This document shows positions 1 through 47,500 of a stretch of 64,000 nt of DNA, piece by piece. The stretch lies in IMG/VR virus record IMGVR_UViG_3300009159_000032; one strand, given 5' to 3'. A program made the translations under genes and the position numbers. The notes under the pieces are model-generated. The model saw only the letters and a program-made list of their open reading frames with translations. It made no database searches and was not told the DNA's origin. Origin of the DNA: a virus. The stretch's first letter is position 1. Each line of letters starts with the position of its first letter.

Positions 1-1478
1 TTACTGCACTTGAAAAGAAAAAGAATTGTATTCTATTCATTGACGAAGCACACATGATGAACGGTGCGGGTGCAGCCGGAGGGGGTAGTAACGACATGGC
101 TAATATGCTGAAGCCGGCATTAGGCAAAGGCACACTTAAAGTCGTTGCCTCAACCACGTGGGAAGAATTCCGTAAACACTTTGAAAAGGATCGTGCCCTA
201 ATGCGTCGATTCCAACGTGTGATTGTGAATGAACCAAACGAAGCAACTTCTATTAAGATTATAAAAGGTCTTAAAAAGTATTACGAACAACATCACGGTG
301 TTAAGATTACTAATCAAGCTGTCATTGATAGTGTAAAATACAGTATCAAGTATATGACTGATAAACGCCTGCCAGACAAAGCCATTGATTTAATTGACTG
401 TGCCTGTGCTCGCTTTAAAGTACGTGATCAAGAAAACGGTATTGTTGACCACGACGAAATTGTTTTTGAAGTTAGTAAACTAACAGGTCTTCCATTAGAT
501 CAAATTGCTGCAAAAGAAAATAAAAATCTCAAAGACCTTGACAAGAATATGCGTAGCAAAGTGTATGGTCAAGAATCTGCAATTGAAATTTTGTTAGATA
601 AAATCTTTATTGCTCAAGCAGGTTTAAAATCTCTAAACAAACCTGTAGGTAGTTTCTTGTTTACTGGACCAACAGGCGTTGGTAAAACTGAAACTGCAAA
701 AGTGCTGGCCGCAGGTATGAGTGTAGAACTTGTACGTTTTGATATGAGTGAGTATCAAGAGAAACACAGTGTTGCCAAGTTTATCGGTGCTCCTCCAGGA
801 TATGTTGGTTTTGAAGACAATGCCGGACTGCTGATCACTAAACTACAAGAACATCCTAACTGTATCTTGTTATTTGATGAGATTGAAAAAGCACATCCGG
901 ATGTTAGTAATGTCCTATTACAACTAATGGACAATGGCTACGTTACAGGTAGCAACGGTAAAAAAGCAGATGGCCGCAATGCTATTCTTATCATGACCAG
1001 TAACTTAGGGGCCGCTGATGCAGAACGCAATGCTGTAGGCTTTGGTAGTCTTGAAAGAGATGATGACGGTAAAGATGCTGTTAACAGTTTCTTTAAGCCA
1101 GAATTCCGCAATCGTTTAGACGGTATTATTAAGTTTGGAAAACTTGATCATAACACAATGGCTAAAATTGTTAAGAAGTTTATTGACGAACTTAATAGTC
1201 TGCTTAAAGATAAGAATGTTCACGTTAAACTTAATGCAGATGCTGCTGAACTATTAATCAAGAAAGGCTTTAATCGTAAAATGGGTGCCCGCCCACTGCA
1301 ACGTACTATTGACGACATGATTAAAAAGCCACTAAGTAAAGAAATTTTATTTGGTAGACTTGTTAACGGTGGCATTATTGAAATTACAGTTAAGAACAAC
1401 CAACTGTCAATAACATACCCTGAGATTCTTTCAGTTGAGGCTACAAGTGATAAAGATAAAGAGACTGAAAACCAATAA
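1..1478 (+). CDS. clpA: ClpA-type AAA+ unfoldase (HSP100), 5'-truncated by the window edge
   Basis: The frame is open from position 3 (TALEKKKNCILFIDEAH = NBD1 Walker B). It has NBD2 Walker A GPTGVGKT, RFDMSEY, GAPPGYVG, Walker B LLFDEIEKAH and GARPL. There is no ClpB/C middle coiled coil, and a VGF ClpP-docking loop is present. Confidence 0.9.
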   Translation, partial: TALEKKKNCILFIDEAHMMNGAGAAGGGSNDMANMLKPALGKGTLKVVASTTWEEFRKHFEKDRALMRRFQRVIVNEPNEATSIKIIKGLKKYYEQHHGVKITNQAVIDSVKYSIKYMTDKRLPDKAIDLIDCACARFKVRDQENGIVDHDEIVFEVSKLTGLPLDQIAAKENKNLKDLDKNMRSKVYGQESAIEILLDKIFIAQAGLKSLNKPVGSFLFTGPTGVGKTETAKVLAAGMSVELVRFDMSEYQEKHSVAKFIGAPPGYVGFEDNAGLLITKLQEHPNCILLFDEIEKAHPDVSNVLLQLMDNGYVTGSNGKKADGRNAILIMTSNLGAADAERNAVGFGSLERDDDGKDAVNSFFKPEFRNRLDGIIKFGKLDHNTMAKIVKKFIDELNSLLKDKNVHVKLNADAAELLIKKGFNRKMGARPLQRTIDDMIKKPLSKEILFGRLVNGGIIEITVKNNQLSITYPEILSVEATSDKDKETENQ

Positions 1479-2665: not shown

Positions 2666-3043
2666 ATGCTATTGAACGAATTTTTTGGGTCTATTAATCT
2701 AAAAACAAATACTGAATCTTCAAAAAAAGAAGAACACAAAAAAGTTAAACAACAGGCCCTTGCTGACGATATTTTTGAATATATCATTAATAATAATAAG
2801 CTACACAAAAATGTATTCTTTCCCATTGCCGAAAAAATAGTTAAAGAAGCAACTAAAGAACATGATCCAAAAATGTGGATGCCTATAGTTAACAAAGGCT
2901 GTATGGAATTTTACAATCACATAAAATTAAAAGATAATCCCAAAGAACTTTTTACAGAAGAATTCCGTGAAGAATTGTGTCACAAAATGGCAGAACACTA
3001 CAACCGTGATATATTAACCGGCATATATAATCTAGGAAAATAA
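2666..3043 (+). CDS. hypothetical, candidate head-associated protein
   Basis: 125 aa with a GGAG RBS. The N-terminus MLLNEFF resembles that of the next gene (MLLNQLF). Confidence 0.7.
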   Translation: MLLNEFFGSINLKTNTESSKKEEHKKVKQQALADDIFEYIINNNKLHKNVFFPIAEKIVKEATKEHDPKMWMPIVNKGCMEFYNHIKLKDNPKELFTEEFREELCHKMAEHYNRDILTGIYNLGK

Positions 3044-6000
3044 ATGCTGTTAAATCAATTATTTTCTCCTAAAAAATTATTCGAGGGCGGCAACTTAGCC
3101 AGTCACAAAGCTGACGGACAACCTATGCCAGGATGGCAGGGGATTCCTGGACAACATCAAGCACAAGAACTAGATTTAAACGTACACAACCGTACAGAAG
3201 TAGTAGCTGTACTATCTGATTTATTACACGGTATTAATGATGCATTTGCACAACAATTTAAAGAACCGCTTTGGCATGAAAATTCTGTAAAGGCTCAAAA
3301 GTTCTTAAGTGGTAGTACTATGCGATTCTTTGATAAGAAAATTTCAGACGAAGAATTTGTACGTGTCAAACCTACAGTAGGTGATATTGATACACAGGCG
3401 CCCGATAAACACGAAGGAACAATCAAACAATTCCTTACAGGATTAATTGGTAAGAAAGTAGGCGATGCTAAATTTATTGGATTTAGTGCTGGTAACAATC
3501 AATACACTAGTATGTGGGAAGTTTTACTAAAGGATCTTCCAGTTAAATTACAGATCGACTTTGAATACGGAGCACACGATCCAGAAACTGGATTACCCAC
3601 TCCGTGGCAAGAATACAGTCATAGCAGTTCTTGGGAAGATTTATCAGCAGGTATCAAAGGTGTATTTCACAAATACATCGATCGCGCCTTGCCATACGCT
3701 TCTACTGTTAGCACTAAGTATGTTGCTCGTGTATTAAAGAAAAGTACAAAAATCAGTGATGAACCTGTAACAGATTCAGATTACAGTTTTGCTGTCAGTG
3801 GTCAAGGCGGTGGTGGTGTAAGTAGAAAGTATGTTCCTTATAATGATCCAGCTACTGGTGCTCCTATGGAAAGAGACGGCATACCAGTTATGCAGTTATT
3901 AGATCCAGCAAACAGACAATACATTCAAAATCTTGGACAACAATTTGAAATTTTCTTTGGTCGTAAACCCAAAGGTAATGATCAGCAACTTAAAAATAGT
4001 TTTGTGGGCACTGTAGAACTAGCCAACAAATATCTAGACGACCAACAACGTACAGAATTATTCAACAGATTTGTATCTATATGTTTCGAACCTGGTAGTC
4101 AAATGATTACCAAAGGCGACCCAGCTAGAGATCGCAATATTAAAATGGCTGCTATTGATTACATGATTCAAAACATGAAACTTGCTAATCCTCAGGGCAT
4201 GAGAAAGCAGGCTATTAAAACAGCCATGGACTATGAGCAGGCCTTTACTTCAAAGCAGGCAGGTAAGGGCTTGAACGAAGCAGAAGTTAAGGCACAGTTT
4301 CGTAAAAACATGCCTCACCTTAAGGATCTAAAGCCCATTGATTTTTTAGATTTGTTAGATGAATTGCATCAAGGCAACGGACAATTTAAATTAAAGAATA
4401 TTCCATTAAATGTCAAAGTAGATGGCTTTGGTGGCCGCTTTGGTAAGAACTCAGACGGCAAGCCATTTATGGCCACAAGTAGAACAGAGCCGCGTTATCA
4501 AGCAGGCTTTGTTGACTATCATCAAAAGAAAGGCACAACTGATCCCGAAATACTAGGTCGTGCTCAACTTTTTGACGATTTGTTTGCAGAAATGATGAGT
4601 GCTGTACAACTTGTTGACAGCAAACTAGGTCCTGATTTTTTAATTAACAAACAAGTAACCTGCGAAGTTTTATATCTGCCATTTGCTACAGAAACTCCAG
4701 AAGGCAGGTTAAAATTTGTAGGTATACACTATGACAAACTTCCACAGGGTGTTCAATTAGCACTAGTTCCGTTCCGCGTAACAGATGCAACCACAGGCGA
4801 AGACCTTCCAGAGTCAAATAAAATAGTTAAAGAATTAACCAGCGTAGGTCGTCAAGGCAGTGTAATGTTTATTGACAACAGTCTAACACAAAACGAAGAA
4901 TTAGATGTTACTGAAATTATTAATGTGTTAGATAATATTGAAGAATTAAAACAGATTGTGTCGGACACTGCTGGTAAAAGAGATCGTGCTAGTTTAGATC
5001 TTAGACGTCAAGTTGAAGAAAAATTACAACCAGTTAAAGTAGAACTTGAAAAAGCAATTATTAACGATCCTAACATCATTGGTAAAGATTTATTGGGCAA
5101 AGACTACGAAGGTATTGTTATCAATAGTCGCCTTGGTCCTATTAAAATTACCAGTCAAGAACAACGTGATGTTATTAGTGCTAAAAATGCAGCTAAAGTA
5201 AGTGCAAGAACAGAACAGCCACGTGCAAATTCTAATAAAACAGCAGTAGTAGCAATAGGATCTTTTATTGGTCATAAAGGGCACGAAGAACTTTGGGACT
5301 ATACTGTTAAGAAAGCAGAACAAGTTGGCGGTGATCCTTATCTGTTTATCGGTAATGCAGAAGGCAAAGACGATCCTATTCCTCCTTCAGTTAAAGTACA
5401 GACATGGCATAAACTATATCCAGAATATGCTAAGAATATCAGCACAGTACAAGAAGGCGGACAGCTAATACAAAAGATCAAACACGAATTAATTAATCCA
5501 CTTCCAGGTAAACCTCCACGCTATGATAACATTATTATCATGGTTGGCGAAGATAGAGCAGGTATTAACATGCCTAATGCTTTAATGAAAGCTGTGAACA
5601 AATTCCAAGGATATGAACATGTTAAGGTAAGCCTTGATGTTACTCCGCGTGGCACTGGAATTAGCGGAACTGCGTTACGTAATAGTCTAAAAAATGATCC
5701 TCCAGAAAAAGCATTGGCTACATGGTCTAATGCATTTGATGTAAACAAACTTGGTGTTGATTGGATCAAACACTTAATGGATATAACGAGAAAAGGTATG
5801 GGCATACAACAAACACAACCACAACAACCTGCATCGCAGCCCACACCAATGGCTGAGATGAGACTGTTCAACGCTCTTGTAGCACCAAAACATAGTATGC
5901 AAGAAGGCTTAGGTAAACACGTTGCTAGTGCTGCATTAGCAGGTGCTATGGCATTCGGTGGTGCAGGAGCACATGCCCAGAGTTCAGGAGAAGATTTTTT

Positions 6001-7117
6001 ACCCGATATTGTTGCTCACGTTACTTTTAAAGTTAACGGCAAAGAAATATCAAAAGATATTAATCTAGGAACAACATATAAATCTCCCGGTGAAGCGTCA
6101 GCTGCACTTGAAAAATTCTTAAAATCTAAAGGCATCAAGTATTTTGAATATAGTCTTGAGCGTGTAAAATCAAAAGATGACGACTATATAGATAAAACTC
6201 CGGCATCAGATACAAGTACATCGGGTTCCGTAGACAGTCGTCCTTACAGTTCAACTGGAAATTCACCAAGTAACTATATGGCTAAAGAAAATGTAGAAGA
6301 AGCTAAGTCTGCTAGTAGACGTTGGCATGATGCATTACAGCGTGAAAAAGAACGCCGTGAACGCAATGAACGTGCAGGTCAAGAACTTCTAAATCCTAAA
6401 AAGAAAGAAGAACCTAAAGAAAAAGATGTGGCGGAAGGCTCCTTAGAAGCAAATACTCCAAATCCTGTTGTAGTAGTACAAGACTTAAAAGGTAAGATTT
6501 TAGATAAAGTAAATCTATCAATGGCTGTACAAAAATATAAATTAGGCAACCCGCAAGATATAAAAAATCAATTAGCACATCAAAACTATACTCAAATTGG
6601 AAATTATATTATAGTGTCACCTATGAGCGGACAGCCGCAAGATGCAACAACGCAAGGTGTGGCGGAAGGTGACAGTGGTGCAAAATATAAAGTAAGAAGT
6701 ATTGGGCACGATGCCAAAGGTGATTATTATATCAGCCCAAGCACAGGAAAAAAAGTTTATAAAAAGGGTGCCAAAGTCGGTGATCACGAAAATCCCAAAA
6801 CGGGCGAGCACAAAGGTGTAGCGGAAGGTGATAGTCCAGCAATGGCACATACTACCAAGAGCTTGGAAAATCCTCCTAAGGTTATGCAACACCGTGCCAA
6901 ACGTGATCAAGAACGTGATAAGCAACTACAATATAGAAATATTTCTAAACGAGATGAAGATCTAGACGAAAAAATCAAAGGCGCAGACGGCAAAGCCTGC
7001 TGGCCCAACTATCGTTACAACGGTACAGAGAACGGCTCAGACAAGTGTGTTAAAATTGGCGAAGCATGGGAATTAGAAATGTCTAATGCTATTAGTAAAC
7101 TATTTGAAAACCGATGA
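3044..7117 (+). CDS. 1357-aa multidomain protein/polyprotein: Pol-beta-type NTase + ligase-type (KxDG) NTase + HIGH-type cytidylyltransferase-like domain + short modules
   Basis: Motifs GS..GDID (3311-3391), NVKVDG (4409-4426), YEGIVI/PIKI (about 5105-5150), GHKGH (5270-5284), MVGEDR and GISGTALR. The C-terminal modules are separated by VAEG repeats. Confidence 0.75.
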   Translation: MLLNQLFSPKKLFEGGNLASHKADGQPMPGWQGIPGQHQAQELDLNVHNRTEVVAVLSDLLHGINDAFAQQFKEPLWHENSVKAQKFLSGSTMRFFDKKISDEEFVRVKPTVGDIDTQAPDKHEGTIKQFLTGLIGKKVGDAKFIGFSAGNNQYTSMWEVLLKDLPVKLQIDFEYGAHDPETGLPTPWQEYSHSSSWEDLSAGIKGVFHKYIDRALPYASTVSTKYVARVLKKSTKISDEPVTDSDYSFAVSGQGGGGVSRKYVPYNDPATGAPMERDGIPVMQLLDPANRQYIQNLGQQFEIFFGRKPKGNDQQLKNSFVGTVELANKYLDDQQRTELFNRFVSICFEPGSQMITKGDPARDRNIKMAAIDYMIQNMKLANPQGMRKQAIKTAMDYEQAFTSKQAGKGLNEAEVKAQFRKNMPHLKDLKPIDFLDLLDELHQGNGQFKLKNIPLNVKVDGFGGRFGKNSDGKPFMATSRTEPRYQAGFVDYHQKKGTTDPEILGRAQLFDDLFAEMMSAVQLVDSKLGPDFLINKQVTCEVLYLPFATETPEGRLKFVGIHYDKLPQGVQLALVPFRVTDATTGEDLPESNKIVKELTSVGRQGSVMFIDNSLTQNEELDVTEIINVLDNIEELKQIVSDTAGKRDRASLDLRRQVEEKLQPVKVELEKAIINDPNIIGKDLLGKDYEGIVINSRLGPIKITSQEQRDVISAKNAAKVSARTEQPRANSNKTAVVAIGSFIGHKGHEELWDYTVKKAEQVGGDPYLFIGNAEGKDDPIPPSVKVQTWHKLYPEYAKNISTVQEGGQLIQKIKHELINPLPGKPPRYDNIIIMVGEDRAGINMPNALMKAVNKFQGYEHVKVSLDVTPRGTGISGTALRNSLKNDPPEKALATWSNAFDVNKLGVDWIKHLMDITRKGMGIQQTQPQQPASQPTPMAEMRLFNALVAPKHSMQEGLGKHVASAALAGAMAFGGAGAHAQSSGEDFLPDIVAHVTFKVNGKEISKDINLGTTYKSPGEASAALEKFLKSKGIKYFEYSLERVKSKDDDYIDKTPASDTSTSGSVDSRPYSSTGNSPSNYMAKENVEEAKSASRRWHDALQREKERRERNERAGQELLNPKKKEEPKEKDVAEGSLEANTPNPVVVVQDLKGKILDKVNLSMAVQKYKLGNPQDIKNQLAHQNYTQIGNYIIVSPMSGQPQDATTQGVAEGDSGAKYKVRSIGHDAKGDYYISPSTGKKVYKKGAKVGDHENPKTGEHKGVAEGDSPAMAHTTKSLENPPKVMQHRAKRDQERDKQLQYRNISKRDEDLDEKIKGADGKACWPNYRYNGTENGSDKCVKIGEAWELEMSNAISKLFENR

Positions 7118-7383
7118 AACAATATAGAATATCAGGATTCCCAATAGATGCATCAACTGATCCAGATTGTGCATTGTCTCCTGACGATCCTATACATAAA
7201 CTAAAGGCCAGTAATTGGCTAGGTGAATTAGGCGCCGAAGCTAGGATGGCAGAATACAATAACAGCAGTCGTACGCCTACATGGAATGATCCACGTAGCG
7301 AAAATGCACGTATTATGCGTGAACAAGGTATTAAACCAGGTACTCCTGCTTGGTTCGAGCTTTGGTTTGGAAAAAATAAATAA
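7114..7383 (+). CDS. hypothetical protein (89 aa)
   Basis: ATGA-coupled to the upstream gene; ends in KPGTPAWFELWF. Confidence 0.7.
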   Translation: MKQYRISGFPIDASTDPDCALSPDDPIHKLKASNWLGELGAEARMAEYNNSSRTPTWNDPRSENARIMREQGIKPGTPAWFELWFGKNK

Positions 7384-7389
7384 CATATT

Positions 7390-7764
7390 ATGAGAATATC
7401 TGAATTACTCACCGAAGTTAAGTCTGGCAAAATCAGCAAGAGAGCACAACAACCCAGTCGTGGCATTAACACCTATGGCGATGTTGAACACGCAAACAGC
7501 GACTATGTAGGCTTTAAGCTAGGGCAGGCTATGGCAATGAGTGACGGTTCGGGTGCTCCGATAAACATTGACCCTAAGAGCTGGTACGGTAAAAAGAAAA
7601 CTGTGCATCCTTATTCAGAAATAGAACAACAGATGTTTAAAGATGCGGCTAAGGTAGTCGGAGCTAGTTATAAAGATATAAACAAAGGCGATATGAAAAG
7701 CAAAGAGCTAGACAGTACTCACAATATTAGTCCTGTGCCTGATAGAAAGAAGCTAGCAAAATGA
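7390..7764 (+). CDS. candidate internal head protein
   Basis: N-terminus MRISELLTE resembles a T4 capsid-targeting sequence; ATAAATA lies at 7376-7382. Confidence 0.7.
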   Translation: MRISELLTEVKSGKISKRAQQPSRGINTYGDVEHANSDYVGFKLGQAMAMSDGSGAPINIDPKSWYGKKKTVHPYSEIEQQMFKDAAKVVGASYKDINKGDMKSKELDSTHNISPVPDRKKLAK

Positions 7765-7925
7765 AAATACAAGAACTCTTAGAAACAGCAACAGGTATGG
7801 GCACCAGTGCTATTGCAACCAGCATGCCTGCAAAGAAACCTAAGAAGGGACAGAAATTAAATCTGCTTGGGACTCCTGTATCTGAGACAGATAAAGAAGT
7901 TAAGATAATAAAGAGACAACCATGA
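7761..7925 (+). CDS. small candidate internal head protein (54 aa, missing from the ORF track)
   Basis: Manual translation gives MKIQELLETATGMGTSAIATSMPAKKPKKGQKLNLLGTPVSETDKEVKIIKRQP. It has ATGA overlaps with both neighbours and fills the gap exactly. Confidence 0.8.
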   Translation: MKIQELLETATGMGTSAIATSMPAKKPKKGQKLNLLGTPVSETDKEVKIIKRQP

Positions 7926-8773
7926 ATCATCCAGACCACGAAATAGAAATGGCACGTTCCGAATTATATTCAATAGCCAAATATGCTATTGCACTTCACG
8001 AGATGTTAGAAAATGTCAGTGAACTAGACGGCATGGAAGGTTGGCAACAGAGTAAAATCACTCGTGCAGCTGACTACATGGAAAGTGTTTATCAAAGCCT
8101 TACACATGAAATGAAATTTGGAGAGTCTGCTCCCAAAGGTTGGGAAGGTACCGTTAAGGCCATGAAGAAACACAAGGAAATTGATAATCCTTGGGCACTA
8201 GCACACTATATGAAAAACAAAGGCTACAAGAGTCACAAGAAAGAAGAAGGTGTGGCAGAAGCAGGATATGGTCGTAACAAAGATTACGATCCCGGATTTG
8301 CCAGTCCACACGCACCAAAGTTAACACCTATTGGTGGTCCAAAACAAGATGACGAATACGTAAACGGTAATCCAGTAAACAATATTGAAGTATCTATTAA
8401 CGGTCGTCCTTGGAAGATATTTCCAGGCAAGGGACCAGATGGTAGTCGGGCATTTTTCCAACAAAAACAAGATGTTGACGAAATGTGTAAACGCAAGACT
8501 GCCGCAACTGGTAAGAAATGGAGTTGGGGTGTTACCGGTGAGCCTGCTACCAATGAAAGTACTGTGCAGGAACACAAGAAAGGTGTACGTGCTATGAAGC
8601 ATACCACTAAGCCAAGAAACCCAGTAATGGCTGGAGACAAACCAGGTAAAGCAACTGTTACTCACAAAAACAAAAAGAAAGATCAACAACGCGGTGTAGA
8701 AAAACACAAAGGCAAAGAACCTGCTTATGAATCGCGCCTGTGGAACGCACTGTCACAACACTTAGAAAAATAA
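7922..8773 (+). CDS. modular hypothetical protein, candidate polyprotein
   Basis: 283 aa of short modules separated by FGE/S, VAE/A, TNE/S and VQE/H; contains one GVAEA repeat. Confidence 0.75.
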   Translation: MNHPDHEIEMARSELYSIAKYAIALHEMLENVSELDGMEGWQQSKITRAADYMESVYQSLTHEMKFGESAPKGWEGTVKAMKKHKEIDNPWALAHYMKNKGYKSHKKEEGVAEAGYGRNKDYDPGFASPHAPKLTPIGGPKQDDEYVNGNPVNNIEVSINGRPWKIFPGKGPDGSRAFFQQKQDVDEMCKRKTAATGKKWSWGVTGEPATNESTVQEHKKGVRAMKHTTKPRNPVMAGDKPGKATVTHKNKKKDQQRGVEKHKGKEPAYESRLWNALSQHLEK

Positions 8774-10026
8774 TGCGTATACAAGAGCTAGTTGAAACAT
8801 CAAAGCGTACACCAGATTTGATGGATGCGTTTAAGGTTTTTATTCCTCTAGCTATGAAAGAGCTAGAGATTGATCAGCTACCTGATATTAAATTACAATC
8901 AAAATTAGAATTAGATGAACAACCTTCATTCGGACGTTTTGTTCAACATGAAAACAGAATTTATCTAGCTTTGGAAAATCGTCATCCTATTGATATACTT
9001 AGAACATTTGCACATGAACTTGTACACTACAAACAAGGTACAGAACACGAGTTAGATTCTAATAGCGGCGACACTGGTAGTCCACAAGAAAACGAAGCAC
9101 ACGAAGTAGCTGGTGTTATTATGAGACATTTTGATAAAATGTATCCTGAGTTTTTTGATACTTCTGCTGTTGATATCAGTGAAAGTTTGCGAAGTAAGGC
9201 AGCAGGGCTGGCATTAGGTGCTTTGTCTCTAGGTGCTCAAGCTACTGCACCACAGATAGTCCAACAAATTGTCGAGCCAGGTGATACAGTTTATAGTATA
9301 GCAAGACAAAATAATGTACCGCCTGCTGAAATTATGAAACTTAATAAAATGGGGCAAAAGACTAAACTTGAAATTGGTCAGAAAGTAAAAGTTCCAGATT
9401 ATTCAAAACCTATTAGCAAAATGCCTGCTACAGTAACTCCTACTGTTAAGCAAGAACCTACTAAAATATCTCCGGATGCACAGGCAGCTCCAATGAAAGT
9501 ATTGCCTAAAGTAGGCAGTGAAGTTTCTTTATTAAGTAATAATACGGATGCTGAGGCTGCATTGCAATCTGCTGCCAAAGCCGCAGGGCTTAAAGGCGCA
9601 GAGCTGGCACAGTTTATGGCGCAGACTAGACATGAAAGTTGGGACTTTGGCAAAATGAAGGAAGTAGGTAACAAGAAAAAATTTGCCAAATATGAAACTC
9701 CACGCAAAGCAAGACAATTAGGCAATAAAGTAAAAGGCGACGGTGAAAGATTTAAAGGTCGTGGCTTTATACAATTAACTGGCAGAGATAATTACACTAG
9801 AGCCAGTGAACAAATTTTTGGTGATGACAGACTAGTTCGTAAACCTGAATTAGCCAGCGATCTTAACATTGCTGCTAAGATTGCACTTTGGTATTGGAAA
9901 AATCAAGTTAGACCTAATGTAAATAACTTTAATAATACAAAAGAAGTGACTAATGCAATTAATCCGGGTCTAAGTGGACTACAAGACCGACACAATAAAT
10001 TTAAGGAGTATCTAGCAGTATTATGA
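8773..10026 (+). CDS. zincin-like (HExxH) + LysM + GH19 chitinase/peptidoglycan hydrolase
   Basis: Likely start is ATG 8773 (TAATG overlap, MRIQELVE). Motifs AHELVH..ENEAH, LysM VEPGDTVYSIARQNNV (about 9271-9396), and GH19 FMAQTRHES, GRGFIQLTGRDNY and ALWYW. Confidence 0.85.
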   Translation: MRIQELVETSKRTPDLMDAFKVFIPLAMKELEIDQLPDIKLQSKLELDEQPSFGRFVQHENRIYLALENRHPIDILRTFAHELVHYKQGTEHELDSNSGDTGSPQENEAHEVAGVIMRHFDKMYPEFFDTSAVDISESLRSKAAGLALGALSLGAQATAPQIVQQIVEPGDTVYSIARQNNVPPAEIMKLNKMGQKTKLEIGQKVKVPDYSKPISKMPATVTPTVKQEPTKISPDAQAAPMKVLPKVGSEVSLLSNNTDAEAALQSAAKAAGLKGAELAQFMAQTRHESWDFGKMKEVGNKKKFAKYETPRKARQLGNKVKGDGERFKGRGFIQLTGRDNYTRASEQIFGDDRLVRKPELASDLNIAAKIALWYWKNQVRPNVNNFNNTKEVTNAINPGLSGLQDRHNKFKEYLAVL

Positions 10027-10715
10027 GAGTCAATGAATTTATAAACGAAGGCTGGAGCCAAAAATATAAAAAAAGCATTAACTGTTCGCACCCAAAAGGT
10101 TTCAGTCAACGTGCTCACTGTGCTGGCAAAAAGAAGCATAACGAAAGCATAGAAACAGAAATGACCTGCCCTGACTGCGGTCTTTGTGAGGCACACGGCA
10201 ATAGTAAAATTTACGATAAGTGCTGGACAGGTTTTAGAAAAGTACCAGGAAAGAAACGTGGTGAAGATGGTAGCTGTAAGAAGATTGGTGAAGATGAAGA
10301 ATTACATCAAGAGTTTGACTTAATTGAACAAATGGTTGAGCATATTGCAAGACAACACGCTATTGATCCTGAATTTGTCTGGGAAGATCTAGAAAGTCTC
10401 ACAGACGACGAACTATATGTATTTGCTGTCACACAAGAACCTGTAATGGAAGATTGGCAAAAAGTTAACAAAAGAGATAAAACCGATGGCATGAGCCGTA
10501 AAGCTGTTAATGCTTATCGAAGAGAAAACCCGGGTAGTAAATTAAAGACCGCCGTAACTACCAAGCCAAGTAAACTAAAGCGTGGTAGCAAGGCCAGCAA
10601 GCGTAGAAGTAGCTATTGTTCTAGGTCCGCTGGACAAAAGAGTATGCATCATATTGATTGCAGCAAAACTCCAGACAAGGCAATTTGCAAAGCACGACGT
10701 CGTTGGAACTGCTGA
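10023..10715 (+). CDS. basic, Cys-containing modular protein, candidate internal head polyprotein
   Basis: Starts MRVNEFINE/GW; K/R-rich modules are separated by HNE/S, IGE/D and VME/D. Confidence 0.75.
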   Translation: MRVNEFINEGWSQKYKKSINCSHPKGFSQRAHCAGKKKHNESIETEMTCPDCGLCEAHGNSKIYDKCWTGFRKVPGKKRGEDGSCKKIGEDEELHQEFDLIEQMVEHIARQHAIDPEFVWEDLESLTDDELYVFAVTQEPVMEDWQKVNKRDKTDGMSRKAVNAYRRENPGSKLKTAVTTKPSKLKRGSKASKRRSSYCSRSAGQKSMHHIDCSKTPDKAICKARRRWNC

Positions 10716-10912
10716 TGCGAATAACAGAGCTTATTGAAAACTTTGCAGATGGTCGTAATCCACAGGATAAAGGCGATGCTAAACGTCACGGAATTAATAC
10801 CAAAGCCAGTGTAAGTAGTTTGCGTAAAACTGCCAAGCAAGGTGGACGCAAAGGACAACTAGCACATTGGCTGGCTAATATGAAAGCTGGTAGAGCTAAG
10901 AAGAAACATTAA
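10715..10912 (+). CDS. small basic candidate internal head protein
   Basis: Likely start is ATG 10715 (TGATG overlap, MRITELIE/N). Confidence 0.7.
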   Translation: MRITELIENFADGRNPQDKGDAKRHGINTKASVSSLRKTAKQGGRKGQLAHWLANMKAGRAKKKH

Positions 10913-10915
10913 TAT

Positions 10916-11593
10916 ATGACCGAAGAATTGCACACTCAACCAATATATCGAAAACATGAGATACCTCTTGTTAATTATCTAATGACTTTTAAAGATGCCC
11001 TAACAGAAGAATTTTTAAAATTTCACGATAATTGGTTTAATCAAGATGAAGATGTAAAAGGCCTTATACTAACTAGACCAGCAGGTCGAAACGTTGACAA
11101 TTATTTAAGCGACCCTAATGCATGGAAATCTTCGTGGATCAGATACGAATATACTCCCGGAGGTAAAGTTCTTAATAATGATAATACTATTTGGACTTTT
11201 CCAACAGCACATAAAATAATGAAACAGTATGAAGGGCAACTTGGAATTGTTATGTATAGTGTGTTAGAAGCAAACAGTGTTATCAGTAGGCATACTGGTC
11301 CAGAAAATCGTACTGGCGAATATTTAAGAATTCATTTGCCTCTTATTGTGCCAGACGGTGATATATTTTTAGAAGTGAACGGGGAAGAAATAGATTGGAG
11401 CGAACCTTTTGGTTTTAATAATCAGTATATTCACAGTGCTCATAATTATAGTCCTAAAAGAAGATTGGTATTTTTGATCGATATTAAAAGAAGTTTTCTA
11501 GGATTACCTCGAGGAGTTCATTTTCGTGCAAAAGATCATATAGCATATCTAGCATCAGTTCAACCTTTTAAAAGAAAAGGTATTACAATATGA
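10916..11593 (+). CDS. aspartyl/asparaginyl beta-hydroxylase-family 2OG-Fe(II) dioxygenase
   Basis: Motifs SRHTGPEN, LRIHLPLIVP, GFNNQYIHSAHN and RRLVFLID. Confidence 0.8.
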   Translation: MTEELHTQPIYRKHEIPLVNYLMTFKDALTEEFLKFHDNWFNQDEDVKGLILTRPAGRNVDNYLSDPNAWKSSWIRYEYTPGGKVLNNDNTIWTFPTAHKIMKQYEGQLGIVMYSVLEANSVISRHTGPENRTGEYLRIHLPLIVPDGDIFLEVNGEEIDWSEPFGFNNQYIHSAHNYSPKRRLVFLIDIKRSFLGLPRGVHFRAKDHIAYLASVQPFKRKGITI

Positions 11594-12129
11594 GAGACTT
11601 ATTGACCATTATAGAAGCTGTAGAAACTAAAAAATTAACTACAGAAAAACTGCCCTACGGCAAGTCTGAACTTAATCCTGTCATGAGTGATGCCACTATC
11701 AATTATCATTACGAAAAACTAGCCAAGGGGTATGCAGAAAAATATAACAAAGGCGAAGGTGATGATGCTTTTAATATTGCAGGAAGTTTTCTTCATAATT
11801 TATTCTTTCCTCAATTACAGCCTCCCAAAACAAATAATAAACCTGTAGGTGCAAGTTTAGCACTTATTGAAAAGAAATTTAAATCATTTGAAAAATTTCA
11901 AGAAGAAATGCAAACTGAAGCTATGAAAATACAAGGCAGCGGATGGATTTACATGAGCACATCCGGTGCTATTAAAACAATTAAGAATCACGAGGTTAGA
12001 AAAGATATAGCATTGTTGATTGACTGGTGGGAACATGCCTGGGCATTGGACTACCAAGCAGACAAGCAAAAATATATCAAAAACATTTGGCGTATAATTA
12101 ATTGGGAAGTTGTTAACTCAAGACTATAA
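11590..12129 (+). CDS. sod: Fe/Mn superoxide dismutase
   Basis: Motifs LPY..ELNP, INYHY, FLHNLFF, QGSGW and IDWWEHAW..DYQ..K..YI..IW..INW. All four metal ligands (H, H, D, H) can be identified. Confidence 0.9.
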   Translation: MRDLLTIIEAVETKKLTTEKLPYGKSELNPVMSDATINYHYEKLAKGYAEKYNKGEGDDAFNIAGSFLHNLFFPQLQPPKTNNKPVGASLALIEKKFKSFEKFQEEMQTEAMKIQGSGWIYMSTSGAIKTIKNHEVRKDIALLIDWWEHAWALDYQADKQKYIKNIWRIINWEVVNSRL

Positions 12130-22079: not shown

Positions 22080-22859
22080 ATGGTATATCAAAATGCGTAC
22101 GAAAGTCACGACGAGGAACCTAGTGACAAAAAAGAATCAATTTTAGATATTGATGAAAAAGGTTACGAAGTAGGTTACTTAGGTAATGCTATTCGTGCAA
22201 AAATGAAACGTGATAAAAAACGTTTCTGGGCAGGCGACAACGTAAGTGAATATCTTATGCCTGGCGATAAAGAAATGCTAATTGACGATGCTACAGAAGC
22301 ATTTGAAAGTGTATTAGATGCACTGTTGATTGATCGTGAGAATGATCCTAACAGCAAGGGTACAGCACGTAGGCTTGCTAAAATGTATTTTAACGAGATA
22401 ATGGCAGGAAGATATGAACCAGCACCAGACGCAACAGCATTTCCAAATGATTCAGCAGACAGATACGAAGGTATGTTGGTTGTGCGTAGCGAACTACGTA
22501 GTATGTGCAGTCATCATCATCAACCTGTTAGTGGAGTGGCATACATTGGAATTATTGCGGCAGAAAAACTTATCGGCTTGTCCAAGTATACACGCATTGC
22601 CCAATGGTGTGCTCGTCGAGGAACATTACAGGAAGAATTGTGTATTGACATAACCAACAAGATTATGGCTGCAACTGGTAGCAAGGACGTAGGTGTGTAC
22701 ATTCAAGCAGTGCATGGATGCTGTGAGAATCGTGGCATTATGGCACATAGTAGTTTGACTCAGACTACTGTACTTAGAGGTGCATTTAAAGATGACCCTA
22801 ACACTAAAAAAGAATTCATGGACAATGTTAAACTACAGCAAGAATTTGCGCCTCGATGA
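22080..22859 (+). CDS. folE: GTP cyclohydrolase I
   Basis: Motifs GTARRLAKMY, SMCSHHHQP, IGLSKYTRI, RRGTLQEEL, HGCCENRG and TTVLRGAF. Confidence 0.95.
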   Translation: MVYQNAYESHDEEPSDKKESILDIDEKGYEVGYLGNAIRAKMKRDKKRFWAGDNVSEYLMPGDKEMLIDDATEAFESVLDALLIDRENDPNSKGTARRLAKMYFNEIMAGRYEPAPDATAFPNDSADRYEGMLVVRSELRSMCSHHHQPVSGVAYIGIIAAEKLIGLSKYTRIAQWCARRGTLQEELCIDITNKIMAATGSKDVGVYIQAVHGCCENRGIMAHSSLTQTTVLRGAFKDDPNTKKEFMDNVKLQQEFAPR

Positions 22860-23718: not shown

Positions 23719-23935
23719 AACAGTTTACACAGAAGTGGAAGTAGATGTAGATATCGGTGATTTTGATACTGATGATCTATTAGAAGAATTAGAACAACGT
23801 GGTTCATTACCACCAGAAGGCGATACCAATGCCAAAGAACTAGTTGAACAGATGTACTACTTACACCGCCAAGGACAAGACTGTACACATCTGTTAGATC
23901 GTCTGTTCTATTCTGTATTAGGAAAAATAGTATGA
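23708..23935 (+). CDS. hypothetical protein
   Basis: Acidic small ORF overlapping both neighbours; the start may be GTG 23699 or ATG 23708. Confidence 0.6.
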   Translation: MVYKTVYTEVEVDVDIGDFDTDDLLEELEQRGSLPPEGDTNAKELVEQMYYLHRQGQDCTHLLDRLFYSVLGKIV

Positions 23936-24780
23936 GCAAAATTAAAATAGCAGAATTATTTTACAGTATTCAAGGTGAAGGAAGGTACATGGGTGTACCT
24001 TCCGTGTTCTTACGCACGTTTGGTTGCAATTTTAAATGTCAAGGTTTCGGCATGCCTAGGGGAGAACTAAGCAATGAAGCAGATGAGTTAGGTAGTCTTG
24101 CTCATATGTTTAACAAGTATGAAGAGCTACCGCTAGTTAGCACAGGCTGTGATAGCTATGCTAGTTGGCATCCAGACTTTAAAGAACTTAGTCCAATGCT
24201 TACCAGCGAAGCAATCGCAGATCGTATTATGGAAATTCTCCCACACGGCGAATGGCAAGATGAACATCTTGTTATTACAGGTGGTGAGCCATTACTAGGG
24301 TGGCAACGTGCTTATCCAGAGTTGTTAGAGCATCCTAAGATGGCGGGCTTAAAAGAGATCACATTTGAAACAAACGGTACTCAAAAACTAACTGAAGAAT
24401 TTAAACATTACCTAGGTGAGTGGACTGCTGAACATTGGGATAGAGAAATTACATTCTCAGTAAGTGCTAAACTGCCAGCCAGTGGTGAGAAGTGGGAAGA
24501 AGCTATTTGTCCGGAAGTAGTGTGCGAGTATGAAAAACGTGGCACTGCGTATCTTAAATTAGTTGTATCTACGGCAGATGATATTTTAGATGCAGAACGT
24601 GCTGTTAAACAATTTAAAGATGCAGGATTTAAAGGACACATTTATCTGATGCCTGTCGGTGGTGTGGAAAGTGTTTATACGCTAAATGCAAAGAATGTAG
24701 CATTAGCCGCTATGAATCGTGGATGGCGATACAGTGATAGACTACAGGTGCCGTTGTTTAAGAATGAGTGGGGAACCTAA
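23932..24780 (+). CDS. queE: 7-carboxy-7-deazaguanine synthase (radical SAM)
   Basis: Motifs IAELFYSIQGEG, VFLRTFGCNFKC...CDS, VITGGEPL, FETNGT, SVSAKL and RLQVPLF. Confidence 0.9.
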   Translation: MSKIKIAELFYSIQGEGRYMGVPSVFLRTFGCNFKCQGFGMPRGELSNEADELGSLAHMFNKYEELPLVSTGCDSYASWHPDFKELSPMLTSEAIADRIMEILPHGEWQDEHLVITGGEPLLGWQRAYPELLEHPKMAGLKEITFETNGTQKLTEEFKHYLGEWTAEHWDREITFSVSAKLPASGEKWEEAICPEVVCEYEKRGTAYLKLVVSTADDILDAERAVKQFKDAGFKGHIYLMPVGGVESVYTLNAKNVALAAMNRGWRYSDRLQVPLFKNEWGT

Positions 24781-41577: not shown

Positions 41578-44500
41578 TTATTGACCTATTAAAGGATCTC
41601 CTGTTTCACTGTCTAAAGTATCTCCGGATTCAAGCACCAGATATTGATCAGTTGTAGTGTTCTGACCATAGTAATATTTATCTGGCATAAAAGATGGGCT
41701 CTCTAACAAGAACTGTATTTGATCTGTGTTGCGTAAATGGATATTAGAATATTCAAATCCAGTCACAACATCAGTCTTAATTACTACCTTAATTTCAGCA
41801 TCTTCTCTTGGTAAACTAGCCAATACTAAAACGTTAGTTCCAGTTATTGAAAACTCAGGAACAATTGTTTCATTACTTGATGTACCGTATGAATTAACTG
41901 AATCAGAATCGTATGCAATATCAGTACGTGTTCGAACATAGTCTAAACCAGGTTTTGTTAATTGGCGGCCTTGAACAAATACATCAATTTGATACTGTGT
42001 CGCAGTTGATGCGGAAAATGTCAACGGTGTTAGAGCATTTAGATCCCAAGTTGAAGTTCCGTATCTAATATTGTCTGCACCTGTGGCCCAATATGTAGTA
42101 GCAGTGGTCCAGGTTCTAACATTTTCACTTACATAAATTGTCTGTCCTGCACCTTGATCAACAACTATTGAACTTTCTTTGTGCAGAGTTTTAACACCTG
42201 TGCCTAATGTACCTCGTCTTAGGCTACTTAGTTTATTACCAGATAGTCTGTAGAATTCAATTCTTTCGCCGTTAATAAGAATAATACCAGGACGAGATCT
42301 AGCAACGTTAGGCGGTGTTAATACACTGGCATCCTCAACTGTGATCTCAGTGTCAGAGACTGTAAGATCAGCAGCTAATTGTGTAGAATTATTACCGCTT
42401 AGTCGCTTATAATGTGTTCTTCCTAAGTTGTCTCTAAAAATTCTATACCCTAATAACGATTCATTTGTTTTATCAACAACGCTCATTATTACTACAGTGT
42501 CACTTCCTTGTATAGATATTGATGGACTTACTATAATAGTCTTTTGATCACTTTCTAATCTGTAGTGAATATTTTTTGTTAAAGGTTTTCCATTAAGTTC
42601 AACCCATACATAGTTTGTACTTAATGCTGGTCTGGTTAATCTAAAAATTCCACTGCCGTTTCCAGGAAATCTTTCTCTTCTAATCAACGAATTATCGTGA
42701 TTGGTAAAAGTAGTTACTTTTAATGTACTAGAACTAGCAACACTGACTCTATCAGTAAAAATTAAATTTTGTCCTTGAACAATATAGTCATGATCGCGAA
42801 GTATAGTAATTGCAATTGCATCACCTTGTGAAATTGTGTCGACTGCAAATTCAATTAAATTTTCTTCTTGTCGAAGAGATAAGGCTGCACCAAAATATCT
42901 TCTAACGCCATTAACATATACTTCTAAGTGTGCCATGTCAGGAAGACCCTGAACATAATTGTAATGTTGATCAAAAGAGAAAGTTAACTGATTAGTTTCT
43001 GCAATATAATATACAGTATCGGGAGGACTTAATCTTGTACCATTTCTTTCAACAATTATTTGACTATGCAAAGGTCCAATTACACCCGGTGACTGGGATA
43101 ACACAAAAGTGCCGGTGCCAATATTGGCAGAAATATACTGATCATTGACTTCGCTGAATGCTTTGTGTTCGCCGGCAAACGCCCACGCTTGTAGTAGATC
43201 TCCATAATTTAAATTGTTAGTAAATCGTATAATAGCTCTGCCAGACATTCCCCCGTTAGTAGATCCCACTAAGGTATAGGCAGTTGATTTCACTCCGTTA
43301 ACTGTTACATACAAACTTTTAACGCTGGACTTGCTTACTGATAATTCAAAATTATTTTTTCCTGTAGCGGAACTAACGGCATAATGAGCTTTATCAATTA
43401 AATTCTTACCGCCAACATTCATTGTGGTAATTGACAAAAATTGTGGTGCAATCGTCTGAGCTCTAAATGGATCAAAACTGCCTCGGCCTGCATATTTCCA
43501 ATTGCCACCGTTAATTGTACTGTAGAAAACATGGCTAGTATTATTAAGAATTTGTGTGTAGTCTACTTCAACTCCGGTACCGTTAGTTGTTCCTGTTTTG
43601 CCTGTAGCAATACCCGTGATAAATCCTAAATCGCCATTAAAGTTTGCTTCACGCCACGTGTTCTCATAAATCATTTCAACATATTGGTCAGTACCATTAC
43701 TGTACAAAGTAACTTCGTATTGATACGCCGGAACTGTAGGAGTTTGCTCTCTTTTATTATAGTGCGATCCTTGGAATCTTAATCTCCAATATGTAAAATC
43801 ACCTATTGTTCCGCCACTCAAAAATAAGCCAGGAACTTCTCCGGTATCTAAAGGTTGCCCAGAACTTCCTACTGCCTGCCATAAATCGCAATATTCAATA
43901 TATATAGCAGGTTGAGTTAAAAATCCTAATTGAAGAGGTGTCCAAGATGAGTTTCCAGACCCAAATGTTAGGTATCCGTTAGTACCTACATAAACTTCAT
44001 CATATATAGAATCAAACATATTCCACTCAAATCCCAATGAGTACGGACCTGTTGATGTATCATCTCCAGCTGTTGACGCTATAGGAAAACTAATGTTTTC
44101 TTTTCTTGGAAGGACTACGGTTGAACTAAAATAAGGTCCTTGAATTTCAAGTAACGGACTATCTAATAATACTATTTCATTTGTCTCAAAATCAATAGTG
44201 TAATCAATAGCGTATGTTAGCACTGTGCCATCTTTGATAACTTCAACAGAACTAGTGTTTGGAGGAGTCATACCTATTGCATATCTAATAACTCCTACTT
44301 CAAGATAATGTTGTTTATTAATAACTAATCCAGTCCCTGATTCAGGATATGTAAAAATATTAATACCTAAACTATCAGAAACTCTTCCAGGAAGATTTTC
44401 TTCAGGTCCGTAACTATTTGTAGCACTAACAAATGCATCACCGTCAATGTTGATATCTTCGTAGTCGTTAGATTTGGTTAATACCAAATCTCCATCAAGG

Positions 44501-47500
44501 TTAGAATAATAGCCGCCGCCAGAAATATATGTGTCTAGATCAGGATCAACTATTGGACTACTGCCGTCGCTTGACTGTGTTCTAAAAATTATTGTAGCAG
44601 TAGAATTGTATATCTTGTTAACAGTAACAGTACTTTGATATCCGTTACCAACAAATGTAGGCATAATAGCATCTGGATTTGTTGCTGTAGTTCCATCAAT
44701 CCTAATTGTAGCGAACTTATTAGTTACTGTATTAAGAGTTTGAACATAGACATTAATTGATTCATTTAATTCAGGAACAAAATCTAACTGATAAGTGTAA
44801 GGATTGGGATTTAAGAAAGTAACTGTTCCTGTTGTAGTTGCATTAGTAGTTGTTGAAATTGTCACTGCCCATTGCGAAACACTGCCACCTTTGTAAGTTG
44901 AAGATGTAACTGTGTATATTGTGTTTGTTGTTAAGGCAGTAGTAGTGGATCCAACTTTAACTGTTTTAACATCTGGGTAATTGATTAAATCAAAGTAGAA
45001 TGTATTGGTAGTTGCATTAATGTTGGTATCGTTAAACTTAGCAGATATTCTTGGTCCTTTTGCTAGATATGCTCGTTCCTCGGGAATATAATCGTCCCAA
45101 TTGTTTACACCGTATGGCAATGAATCAAAACCACTAGATAAACCAAATGGTAATGTATCAACAGTAACCCCCGGATATTCTAATCCGTTCATTAATAGAG
45201 TTGCAGTATTACCTGGCATACCTGATGTAGGCTCATAGTAATCTCTAATACGATCAATAGCATTATATAACGCAGTGTCTTTTCTATATTCAATCTCAAT
45301 TTCTGTACGTTTAGAAATAATCTGATCAAATACTAGTCTTCCGTATTTTTTAGTGTAGCCTCTAAATTTATCAGTATAAGTTTCTATTGAGTAGTCGCCA
45401 GATAACACTCGTATACCGTTAAGGGTAACTGTTATATAATTTTTGTCTGGATTTGGTGCCCATGAAAGATCAAACTTGTTTGTTAATCCAGATGCAATAA
45501 ATCTGTCAGTGGCAGTTTTAGCGATAATTTCATCATATCCTGCAACACGATCAAATTTCATCTTAACAATGTTTGATCGAATTTTATTGTTTGACATAAT
45601 TACGCTAACCTTAGCAGGCGTCAGTGTAGACGGTCCTCCACCAATAACGTTTATAATTGGTGTAGCAGTATACCCAGAACCAGGATCTGTTACTATAATT
45701 TGTGTAACTTTTCCTAGTGCAATATAAGCAGTTGCTTTTGCGCCAGATCCAGTATCTCCAGCTTGTGGTACAATTTCAATTACCGGAGGAGTATCGTATC
45801 CAGCACCACCATCATATACCTGTACCGACTCTACAGAGTATCCGTAATTTTCTGCCCATGCCTTCCATGGGTAAACTGTTAGTTCTGGTCTACCAAATGT
45901 GATAGGCGTAAATTGTTTAGTTGATGTATCATACACAGACGGTAAATCAAAGTCTGTAGTAATAGACCGTGTAATATCAGTAGCTGTATAATTTGAAGAA
46001 AAGTTTCTTATTTTTGTATGATAAGGTTTAGTTTCTTCAATATAACTTTGATAATAACTTTCGTTGTTTAGTTTATAAACAGGTCTTTGATCCAAAGCAC
46101 CAGCATAATTAACTACATCAACTAGTGATGTTTTTAAAACCCAATCAAGCGATTTTTGTTCTGTTAACGCATGTTTGATTAATTTAAAGAACAATAAATT
46201 GTAGTATACTTTTAATTCTTTAACAAATACATCTTCAAGTAATCCTAAGAAAATATTTTTAATTTCTTTTGTAGGAGTTTGATCAAATAATGTTTGATCA
46301 AATCCAGCTATTTGGTCAAATCCGTATATTGATTCTGAATAATTCCATAAAGAATCAAGAAGTTGAATTGTTCCGTTTTCTTGATAGACTAAATCATAAG
46401 AATTATTGTAGGTACCAGTTGTTTGTGTGCTAGAAATTTTGCGAAGAATAATATATCTACCATCACCTGCATTTCTAATCTTAACATAATTACCTTCTGG
46501 AACTTCAATTAATGCAGATAATTGATACGGTGCATCTATAGTAGCTAATAGATCTTGAGCATTATTAAATGTTGCGTCAACCCAATCTATGTATTTCCAA
46601 TATAATGTTGTATCATAACTTTGTGAAGAAGCTCTATAGTACTCTTTTTTACTGTAGTCCCATTCGTACTTACTCCATTTATTATTAACATTACTATCAA
46701 CAGATACAATAACTGTAAATGGACGGACTACCACAGTTGGAGCAGTTACATATCCTGATCCAGGATTTATAATAGTTGCCTTAACTACTTGGCCAACAAT
46801 ATTAATTTCAGTTTCAATTATTGCACCATGGCCAGTACCTTCTATTGTTACAGTAGGACCAATATAATTTTTAGATGAAGAGATTGACGATGATAATTTT
46901 AAATTCTCAGCATGGTAGCCATAACCGCGATTAGTTATTACTACATTAACTATTTTTCCGTTCGTTACATTACATGACAATTCTGCACGTTTTAAATTTC
47001 TAGTGACAATGCTAAAATCTTTTTCTATTAAATCTTCTACTAAGAAATCATATTGTCCTAATAATGGGTTAGGCGGAGTATCTTTATCTAAAAATCTAGT
47101 TAGATTAACATAGTCAACTATATTATTCTTTTTAAGAATTGAATTTGCATATTCAACAAGAACTCGAGTAGCCCCTTGTTTGCTTACAAACATTGATTGT
47201 CTTGGTCTAACTGATACACCATAACGATTTCGACTAGATAATTTTTCATCAGGTACAGTATTGTTTAAACTGTCTACACCTACTATACTATCTAACATTT
47301 TGCTGATTAATTTTTTAGGAGGAATACTTGATTTATTACCTTCTTGTAATAACAACCATTCTGTATGTTTATTATTAATATTGTTTATTGAATCTAAACT
47401 AATTGACAAATTAATTTTAGTTCCAATCACACTTGATTGCATATTGGTTAACATGACTGCATTATCAGCAATTATGCCTGCAAATTTAATTCCTTGAGCT

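Follow-up and report, generated by a model that had tools for sequence, protein, structure and literature searches.

An export-type leader buried behind a predicted prohead-protease junction in modular proteins of a T4-like phage

Results

A modular phage protein with a buried leader

We describe here an open reading frame (ORF) at positions 3044-7117 of a 64,000-nucleotide stretch of viral DNA (IMG/VR record IMGVR_UViG_3300009159_000032; this whole stretch is referred to below as the window), and a segment deep within its product that has the anatomy of a bacterial export signal. The window encodes a family-B DNA polymerase together with baseplate wedge, hub and tail-fibre genes, and is a piece of a large, uncultured T4-like myovirus. 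Relatives with an 83% identical polymerase have genomes of 330-367 kb, and a nucleotide search of the window against cultured phages gave no match. The features of the ORF that matter to the argument are as follows.

3044-7117, forward strand: modular ORF ('polyprotein') of 1357 residues, in which three nucleotidyltransferase-like blocks (residues ~39-926) are followed by the leader cassette and then by short modules separated by V-x-E junctions.
3044-3085, forward strand: N-terminal tag MLLNQLFSPKKLFE, ending L-F-E, which resembles a capsid-targeting sequence.
5897-5905, forward strand: M-Q-E junction (positions P3 to P1; ATG-CAA-GAA, residues 952-954, with GAA at 5903-5905), a predicted prohead-protease site.
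5906-5977, forward strand (GGC at 5906 to GCC at 5977): predicted internal Sec-type leader of 24 residues, GLGKH...GAGAHA (residues 955-978), with n-region GLGKH, an A/G-rich h-region and c-region A-H-A.
5972-5980, forward strand: A-H-A/Q, predicted signal peptidase I site (CAG 5978-5980 encodes Q979).
5978-6301, forward strand: predicted exported fragment, residues 979-1086, ending at the next V-E-E/A junction (6293-6301).
6005-6166, forward strand: conserved core of ~55 residues in the cargo domain, beta-beta-alpha-beta (AlphaFold predicted local distance difference test score 70-83).

Upstream of the leader, matches to PHROGs cover residues 39-383, 434-584 and 712-926, all nucleotidyltransferase-like. 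A protein search with the whole ORF product returned just distant matches, to this N-terminal enzyme block.

An earlier reading of the DNA, made from the sequence alone, had placed an M-Q-E motif followed by a basic n-region, a hydrophobic core and an A-H-A/Q site about 950 residues into the protein, and the sequence and its translation bear out these coordinates exactly. The n-region is positively charged, although weakly so, with one Lys (K958) and one His; the corresponding regions of relatives carry K-S-K or K-K-F-G-K-K. The h-region comprises 17 uncharged residues with a mean Kyte-Doolittle hydropathy of 1.45, and the most hydrophobic 15-residue window of the entire 1357-residue protein falls within the leader. 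Small residues occupy positions -3 and -1 of the A-H-A site, and its last Ala and the Gln that follows are invariant (alignment A1). The position of the segment is that of no ordinary signal peptide: it begins at residue 955 of 1357 and is internal in every full-length relative seen, and because of this position the leader lies outside the class of N-terminal signal peptides. Nor does it have the marks of a twin-arginine (Tat) signal, being devoid of an RR pair and of a match to PF10518 or TIGR01409. Its Gly/Ala-rich, weakly hydrophobic composition fits that of signal-arrest-release (SAR) domains, yet the segment is internal and has an A-x-A site. A permissive scan of all ORFs for successive n-, h- and c-regions found two canonical internal segments in real genes of the window, at 5906-5977 and 9184-9243. 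Both lie within an N-terminally tagged gene cluster, and both stand behind an [IM]-x-E motif.

The leader travels with a small domain

The C-terminal 406 residues of the ORF product match 461 proteins, and the stretch common to these is the leader and the ~75 residues behind it, at 60-90% identity. Conservation of the leader in homologous modules had been proposed as a check on the sequence-only reading, and it holds in hundreds of metagenomic phage proteins; because it is conserved in this way, the leader is more than a chance arrangement of residues. Within the relatives the cassette lies anywhere from position 14 to position 954 (median 200). An exhaustive phmmer search with the mature domain against 1.8 billion representative proteins produced 75 representative clusters. 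The members inspected are modular and phage-like in architecture, and the leader still precedes the domain where domain identity has fallen to ~40%.

Neither this search nor a word-index search at lengths of 56-179 residues uncovered a stand-alone secreted form or one with a genuinely N-terminal leader, and no cellular homologue with an N-terminal leader is present among the 75 clusters. Cases in which the leader lies near the N-terminus are truncated gene calls on short contigs, starting at an internal Met or within the leader itself. The smallest complete forms, of 177-179 residues, still carry a 50-residue basic tagged prefix that starts M-R-A-K-D-F-I and ends V-D-E.

The closest relative (L001, 2-4732) is 92% identical to the ORF product over its first 890 residues, with the short C-terminal modules reordered. 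There the cassette sits behind a module that in the window is located downstream of it, and the boundary reads ...V-A-E/G-L-G-K-H. Between the two proteins the cassette has shifted position as a single unit, with its boundary exactly at E/G. The cassette is missing from five long relatives and is therefore accessory. The cargo domain behind the leader has no match in Pfam, NCBIfam or PHROGs, and VIA-align places it closest to generic small alpha/beta folds (best Z 7.1).

Leaders of different sequence and pathway type on one backbone

At least three flavours of leader occur in these proteins. They are mutually hard to align, and each closes with A-x-A, the next residue being Q, G or D. The first has G-W-K-S-K and an A/G-rich core, and the G-L-G-K-H leader of the window is a variant of it; the second has G-W-D-D-I-K-K-F-G-K-K and a core; the third has D-I-S-R-R-G-F-L-R/K and a core, and is a twin-arginine signal. 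Assignment of the third flavour is given by curated hidden Markov models (HMMs): with PF10518, P0054, P0068 and P0036 reach 24.5-26.4 bits (cut-off 22.7), and with TIGR01409, P0126, P0127, P0068, P0036 and P0131 reach 17.7-24.0 bits (cut-off 16.7). These matches are all internal, begin at or beside the residue after the Glu, and occupy the position homologous to that of the window leader. One 177-residue backbone, otherwise ~80% identical, bears all three flavours (alignment A2). The exchange amounts to a natural swap experiment in which the properties of a signal peptide are kept and its sequence is not.

The window leader is putatively of the Sec/signal peptidase I type, an assignment that draws on its n-, h- and c-region features and on positional homology with the HMM-verified Tat leaders.

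Periplasm-type modules follow similar leaders

The second internal segment found by the scan belongs to the same locus as 3044-7117, and the module behind it is of a recognizable kind.

9175-9243, forward strand: second internal leader, consisting of I-S-E and then 20 residues (9184-9243) ending A-Q-A/T.
9244-10023, forward strand: peptidoglycan-binding/hydrolase module behind the second leader, with LysM (residues 178-219, 2e-11) and GH19 (residues 284-392, 1.9e-8).

The same succession of leader, LysM and GH19 recurs in L103-L106 behind quite different upstream modules, with junctions N-I-S-E/S-F-K-K-K, E-L-E-E/D-W-K-S and D-L-E-E/G-I-K-S. In two metagenomic proteins, each a tagged polyprotein (P0098 and P0109), a TonB_C domain (PF13103, 1e-15) follows L-E-E/V-D-R-R-G-F-L-K; a Tat leader joined to TonB_C could make these proteins a phage-delivered TonB decoy. 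LysM-GH19 and TonB_C are both domain types with known relatives that work in the periplasm. A Pfam scan of the long relatives for cytoplasmic enzymes behind a leader gave no matches.

The junction, the N-terminal tag and the prohead protease

The Glu at P1 is directly visible in alignments of the cassette proteins, and the wider family shows a like junction pattern. Using this residue as the anchor, we collected 61 distinct junction-plus-leader sequences, in which over 40 upstream contexts are represented. Val occupies P3 in 45 of them, Met and Leu in 5 each, Ile in 3, Lys in 2 and Glu in 1, so that 58 of the 61 conform to V/L/I/M-x-E; at P1' there are 44 Gly, 16 Asp and one Ser. Across the cargo ORFs as a whole the motif [VLIM]-x-E is modestly enriched (49 observed, 38 expected from shuffles). 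The junction pattern matches the rule of T4, where gp21 cleaves after Glu in L/I-X-E; there, a 10-residue N-terminal capsid-targeting sequence is enough for foreign proteins to be packaged in the head and delivered to the host (PMC9026906).

Most full-length relatives begin with a tag that follows the pattern M-x-x-x-[DE]-[LF]-[FIV]-x-[ED]. Within the window it is limited to the locus at 2666-12129, and its likeness to the T4 capsid-targeting sequence is one of motif alone. Peptidase_S77, the family of the T4 gp21-type prohead protease, is encoded in four of five long relatives (G006, G007, G008 and G010), and none was found in five module-bearing viral fragments, which are 10-32% complete. 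It is also present in G011, a 367-kb, 100%-complete genome that encodes a tagged LysM-GH19 polyprotein with an internal leader. This polyprotein (188945-190945) bears the single internal A/G-rich leader of G011, while ordinary Leu-rich N-terminal signal peptides and lipoboxes (L108-L127) occur in that genome on untagged genes only, for example at 198207-198515, 191477-193816, 219261-220055, 350226-350513 and 364641-365192.

Neighbouring genes

Two genes beside those described above may be recorded here. Positions 10023-10715 (forward strand) encode a tagged 230-residue protein that starts M-R-V-N-E-F-I-N-E and ends in DUF6321 (8e-9), a domain also found as a module in relatives (for example P0049). 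Immediately 5' of the tagged cargo locus, at 54-1478 (forward strand), lies a gene for a ClpB/ClpA-type AAA+ ATPase (PF07724, 8e-51; ClpB_D2-small, 1e-21), which might have a role in unfolding or loading cargo.

Elsewhere in the window, GTP cyclohydrolase and QueE-like radical SAM genes at 22080-22859 and 23932-24780 (forward strand) point to a probable 7-deazaguanine modification of the phage DNA. On the reverse strand, a 4769-residue ORF occupies 41578-55887 between tail-fibre and baseplate-wedge genes; the relative G011 has an ORF of 8153 residues.

Discussion

A probable export signal within a proposed head polyprotein

We consider it likely that the segment at residues 955-978 is a real host-type export signal, as the sequence-only reading had supposed. 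Four comparative findings argue for this assignment: Sec and Tat leaders replace one another, an A-x-A site is present, domains of periplasmic type follow such leaders, and no genuinely N-terminal copy was seen.

How the signal would come to be used is less certain. Our preferred reading, to which we give an even chance, is that the polyprotein is loaded into the head and cut after Glu, and that the resulting piece is exported by the host Sec system after ejection. The N-terminal tag would take the entire 1357-residue protein into the prohead, where a T4 gp21-type protease would cleave after Glu954 (M-Q-E/G) and at the other V-x-E junctions. The released fragment, residues 955-1086, would then carry the leader as its new N-terminus. 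Ejected with the DNA into the cytoplasm, and probably unfolded, it would enter the SecA/SecYEG pathway (or, for the RR variants, that of Tat), and signal peptidase I would trim it after A978 of the A-H-A site, leaving a piece of ~108 residues to act in the periplasm. Exposure of the leader by a cut after Glu was part of the sequence-only reading, and the junction motif, its match to the gp21 rule and the gp21-type proteases of relatives all favour that part of it, with the cleavage itself a prediction. Unmasking by a head protease, followed by delivery, is in our judgement plausible, at about even odds.

Several observations count against this reading. The n-region of the window leader has a single Lys and is only weakly basic; P3 is chiefly Val, where T4 has Leu or Ile, and a few junctions are K-x-E; and a gp21-family Peptidase_S77 gene was not seen within the window. 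The cargo domain lacks an informative fold match, Foldseek against the PDB giving none at E<=0.001. Nor is it evident what a phage would gain by sending a peptidoglycan hydrolase into the periplasm as infection begins, and an internal signal could function uncut.

This last point leads to the best-placed of the alternatives, which we nevertheless consider unlikely, namely that the internal signal acts in cis in the producing cell and requires no capsid step. The segment would then act as an N-in/C-out Sec or Tat signal, engaged either as it leaves the ribosome or once translation is over: the upstream enzymes would stay in the cytoplasm while the downstream part was translocated and freed by signal peptidase. 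Internal signals are found in the Bradyrhizobium cytochrome b/c1 precursor and in flavivirus polyproteins, to which such an arrangement may be likened. Internal signal or anchor segments can work in bacteria, the n-, h- and c-region anatomy and the A-x-A site require no free N-terminus, and a LysM-GH19 endolysin made late and exported by Sec, or SAR-like, would be biologically sensible. However, action in cis leaves unexplained why V/L/I/M-x-E adjoins the leader in 58 of the 61 junctions whatever the upstream module, why genuinely N-terminal versions are lacking, and why the cytoplasmic enzyme modules ahead of the leader are unrelated to one another and freely exchanged. The weak A/G-rich h-regions (mean hydropathy 1.2-1.5) are ill suited to co-translational capture, and for export during infection the lineage, as seen in G011, uses ordinary N-terminal signal peptides on untagged genes.

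More doubtful still, and in our view improbable, is a membrane-active or structural role for the hydrophobic segment in place of export: it might insert in the inner membrane when the protein is ejected, or else hold cargo to the scaffold or to the inside of the capsid. No other stretch of the protein is hydrophobic, and in other phages ejection proteins work at the envelope. Such a role is difficult to reconcile with the exchange of the segment for a bona fide Tat motif scoring above curated HMM cut-offs, with the invariant A-x-A/Q site and with the periplasm-type domains behind such leaders. With its A/G-rich composition the segment is, moreover, probably not hydrophobic enough to anchor stably in a membrane. 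The sequence-only reading had left room for a membrane anchor in place of a cleaved leader, and the Tat interchange and the low hydropathy (1.2-1.5) make that option unlikely.

Two further explanations have very little in their favour. The P3 codon of the window is ATG, and translation beginning there (position 5897) would give a separate, ordinary secreted product whose signal peptide, MQEGLGKH..., is N-terminal. The P3 codons of relatives, however, are mostly not start codons (GTA, ATA, GTT, TTA and GTC, sometimes GTG), which excludes a conserved internal start, and the Tat and other leaders lack a start codon as well, so that we regard this explanation as very improbable. No Shine-Dalgarno-like sequence precedes 5897, an absence that is uninformative, since such a sequence accompanies only about half of the genuine starts in this DNA. 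It is equally hard to credit that the leader is a non-functional relic of a captured secreted host protein: the cassettes are clearly shuffled, but no homologue that begins with the leader, whether cellular or stand-alone, is present in the phmmer clusters, and the signal features are kept across three flavours and down to ~40% domain identity.

Relation to known systems

The arrangement is closest to that of the T4 internal proteins IPI, IPII and IPIII and of Alt. Shared features are a short tag at the N-terminus (M-x-x-x-E-F/L-I/F-x-E in type) and cuts, here predicted, after the Glu of a hydrophobic-x-E motif; a gp21-family protease is present in the clade, and the cargo genes are clustered and variable. 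The T4 internal proteins are, however, single-module, whereas here many unrelated modules lie in one ORF behind one tag, and some of them start with a Sec or Tat signal. The target of T4 IPI is a host restriction enzyme inside the cell. By analogy, the design resembles the T4 internal proteins, with their capsid-targeting sequence and gp21, combined with ordinary Sec/Tat signals. Literature searches turned up no export signal behind a gp21 site, and full-text searches found no phage precedent for a buried export signal.

The giant phages phiKZ and SPN3US offer another parallel. Their head and ejection proteins are processed by gp175 and gp245, respectively, and many head-internal proteins are cleaved after Glu within short motifs, some of them more than once (PMC9026906, PMC10052503). 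They differ in that the motif is S/A-X-E and the cuts remove propeptides and do not separate independent modules, and we found no export signals reported for them.

With bacterial Sec/Tat signals and SAR domains the leaders share the n-, h- and c-region layout, the A-x-A site, S-R-R-x-F-L in relatives and a weakly hydrophobic Gly/Ala-rich core. Unlike the bacterial signals, they lie 14 to 954 residues inside the protein, directly after an acidic V-x-E. An export signal inside a precursor that is cut by host signal peptidase, as predicted here, has parallels in flavivirus C-prM and in Bradyrhizobium FbcH. In flaviviruses a viral-protease cut just upstream controls processing by signal peptidase. 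Those signals act co-translationally, at a membrane of the producing cell, whereas we propose that the phage signal is unmasked in the capsid and used for export in the next host cell.

Implications

Generalizing from the window and its relatives, we advance a proposal that we hold tentatively, with slightly less than even confidence. Giant T4-like lake phages may pack pre-made, periplasm-directed effectors into their heads as polyproteins, with the Sec or Tat addresses masked until the prohead protease cuts after Glu, and host export may then return these effectors across the inner membrane. The effectors in question would be the small beta-beta-alpha-beta domain, TonB_C modules and LysM-GH19 hydrolases.

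If this is true, it would constitute a protease-gated, two-cell protein-targeting scheme that has no described counterpart in phages, and a natural bacterial example of a targeting signal unmasked by a protease. The scheme is directly testable with the T4 capsid-targeting packaging system and PhoA or Bla reporters, and a single backbone that occurs with either Sec or Tat leaders would provide a natural experiment on pathway choice. Phage proteins delivered by the virion would not be confined to the cytoplasm, and the periplasm would be modifiable within seconds of infection, before gene expression, for instance in its cell wall, TonB-dependent uptake or superinfection exclusion.
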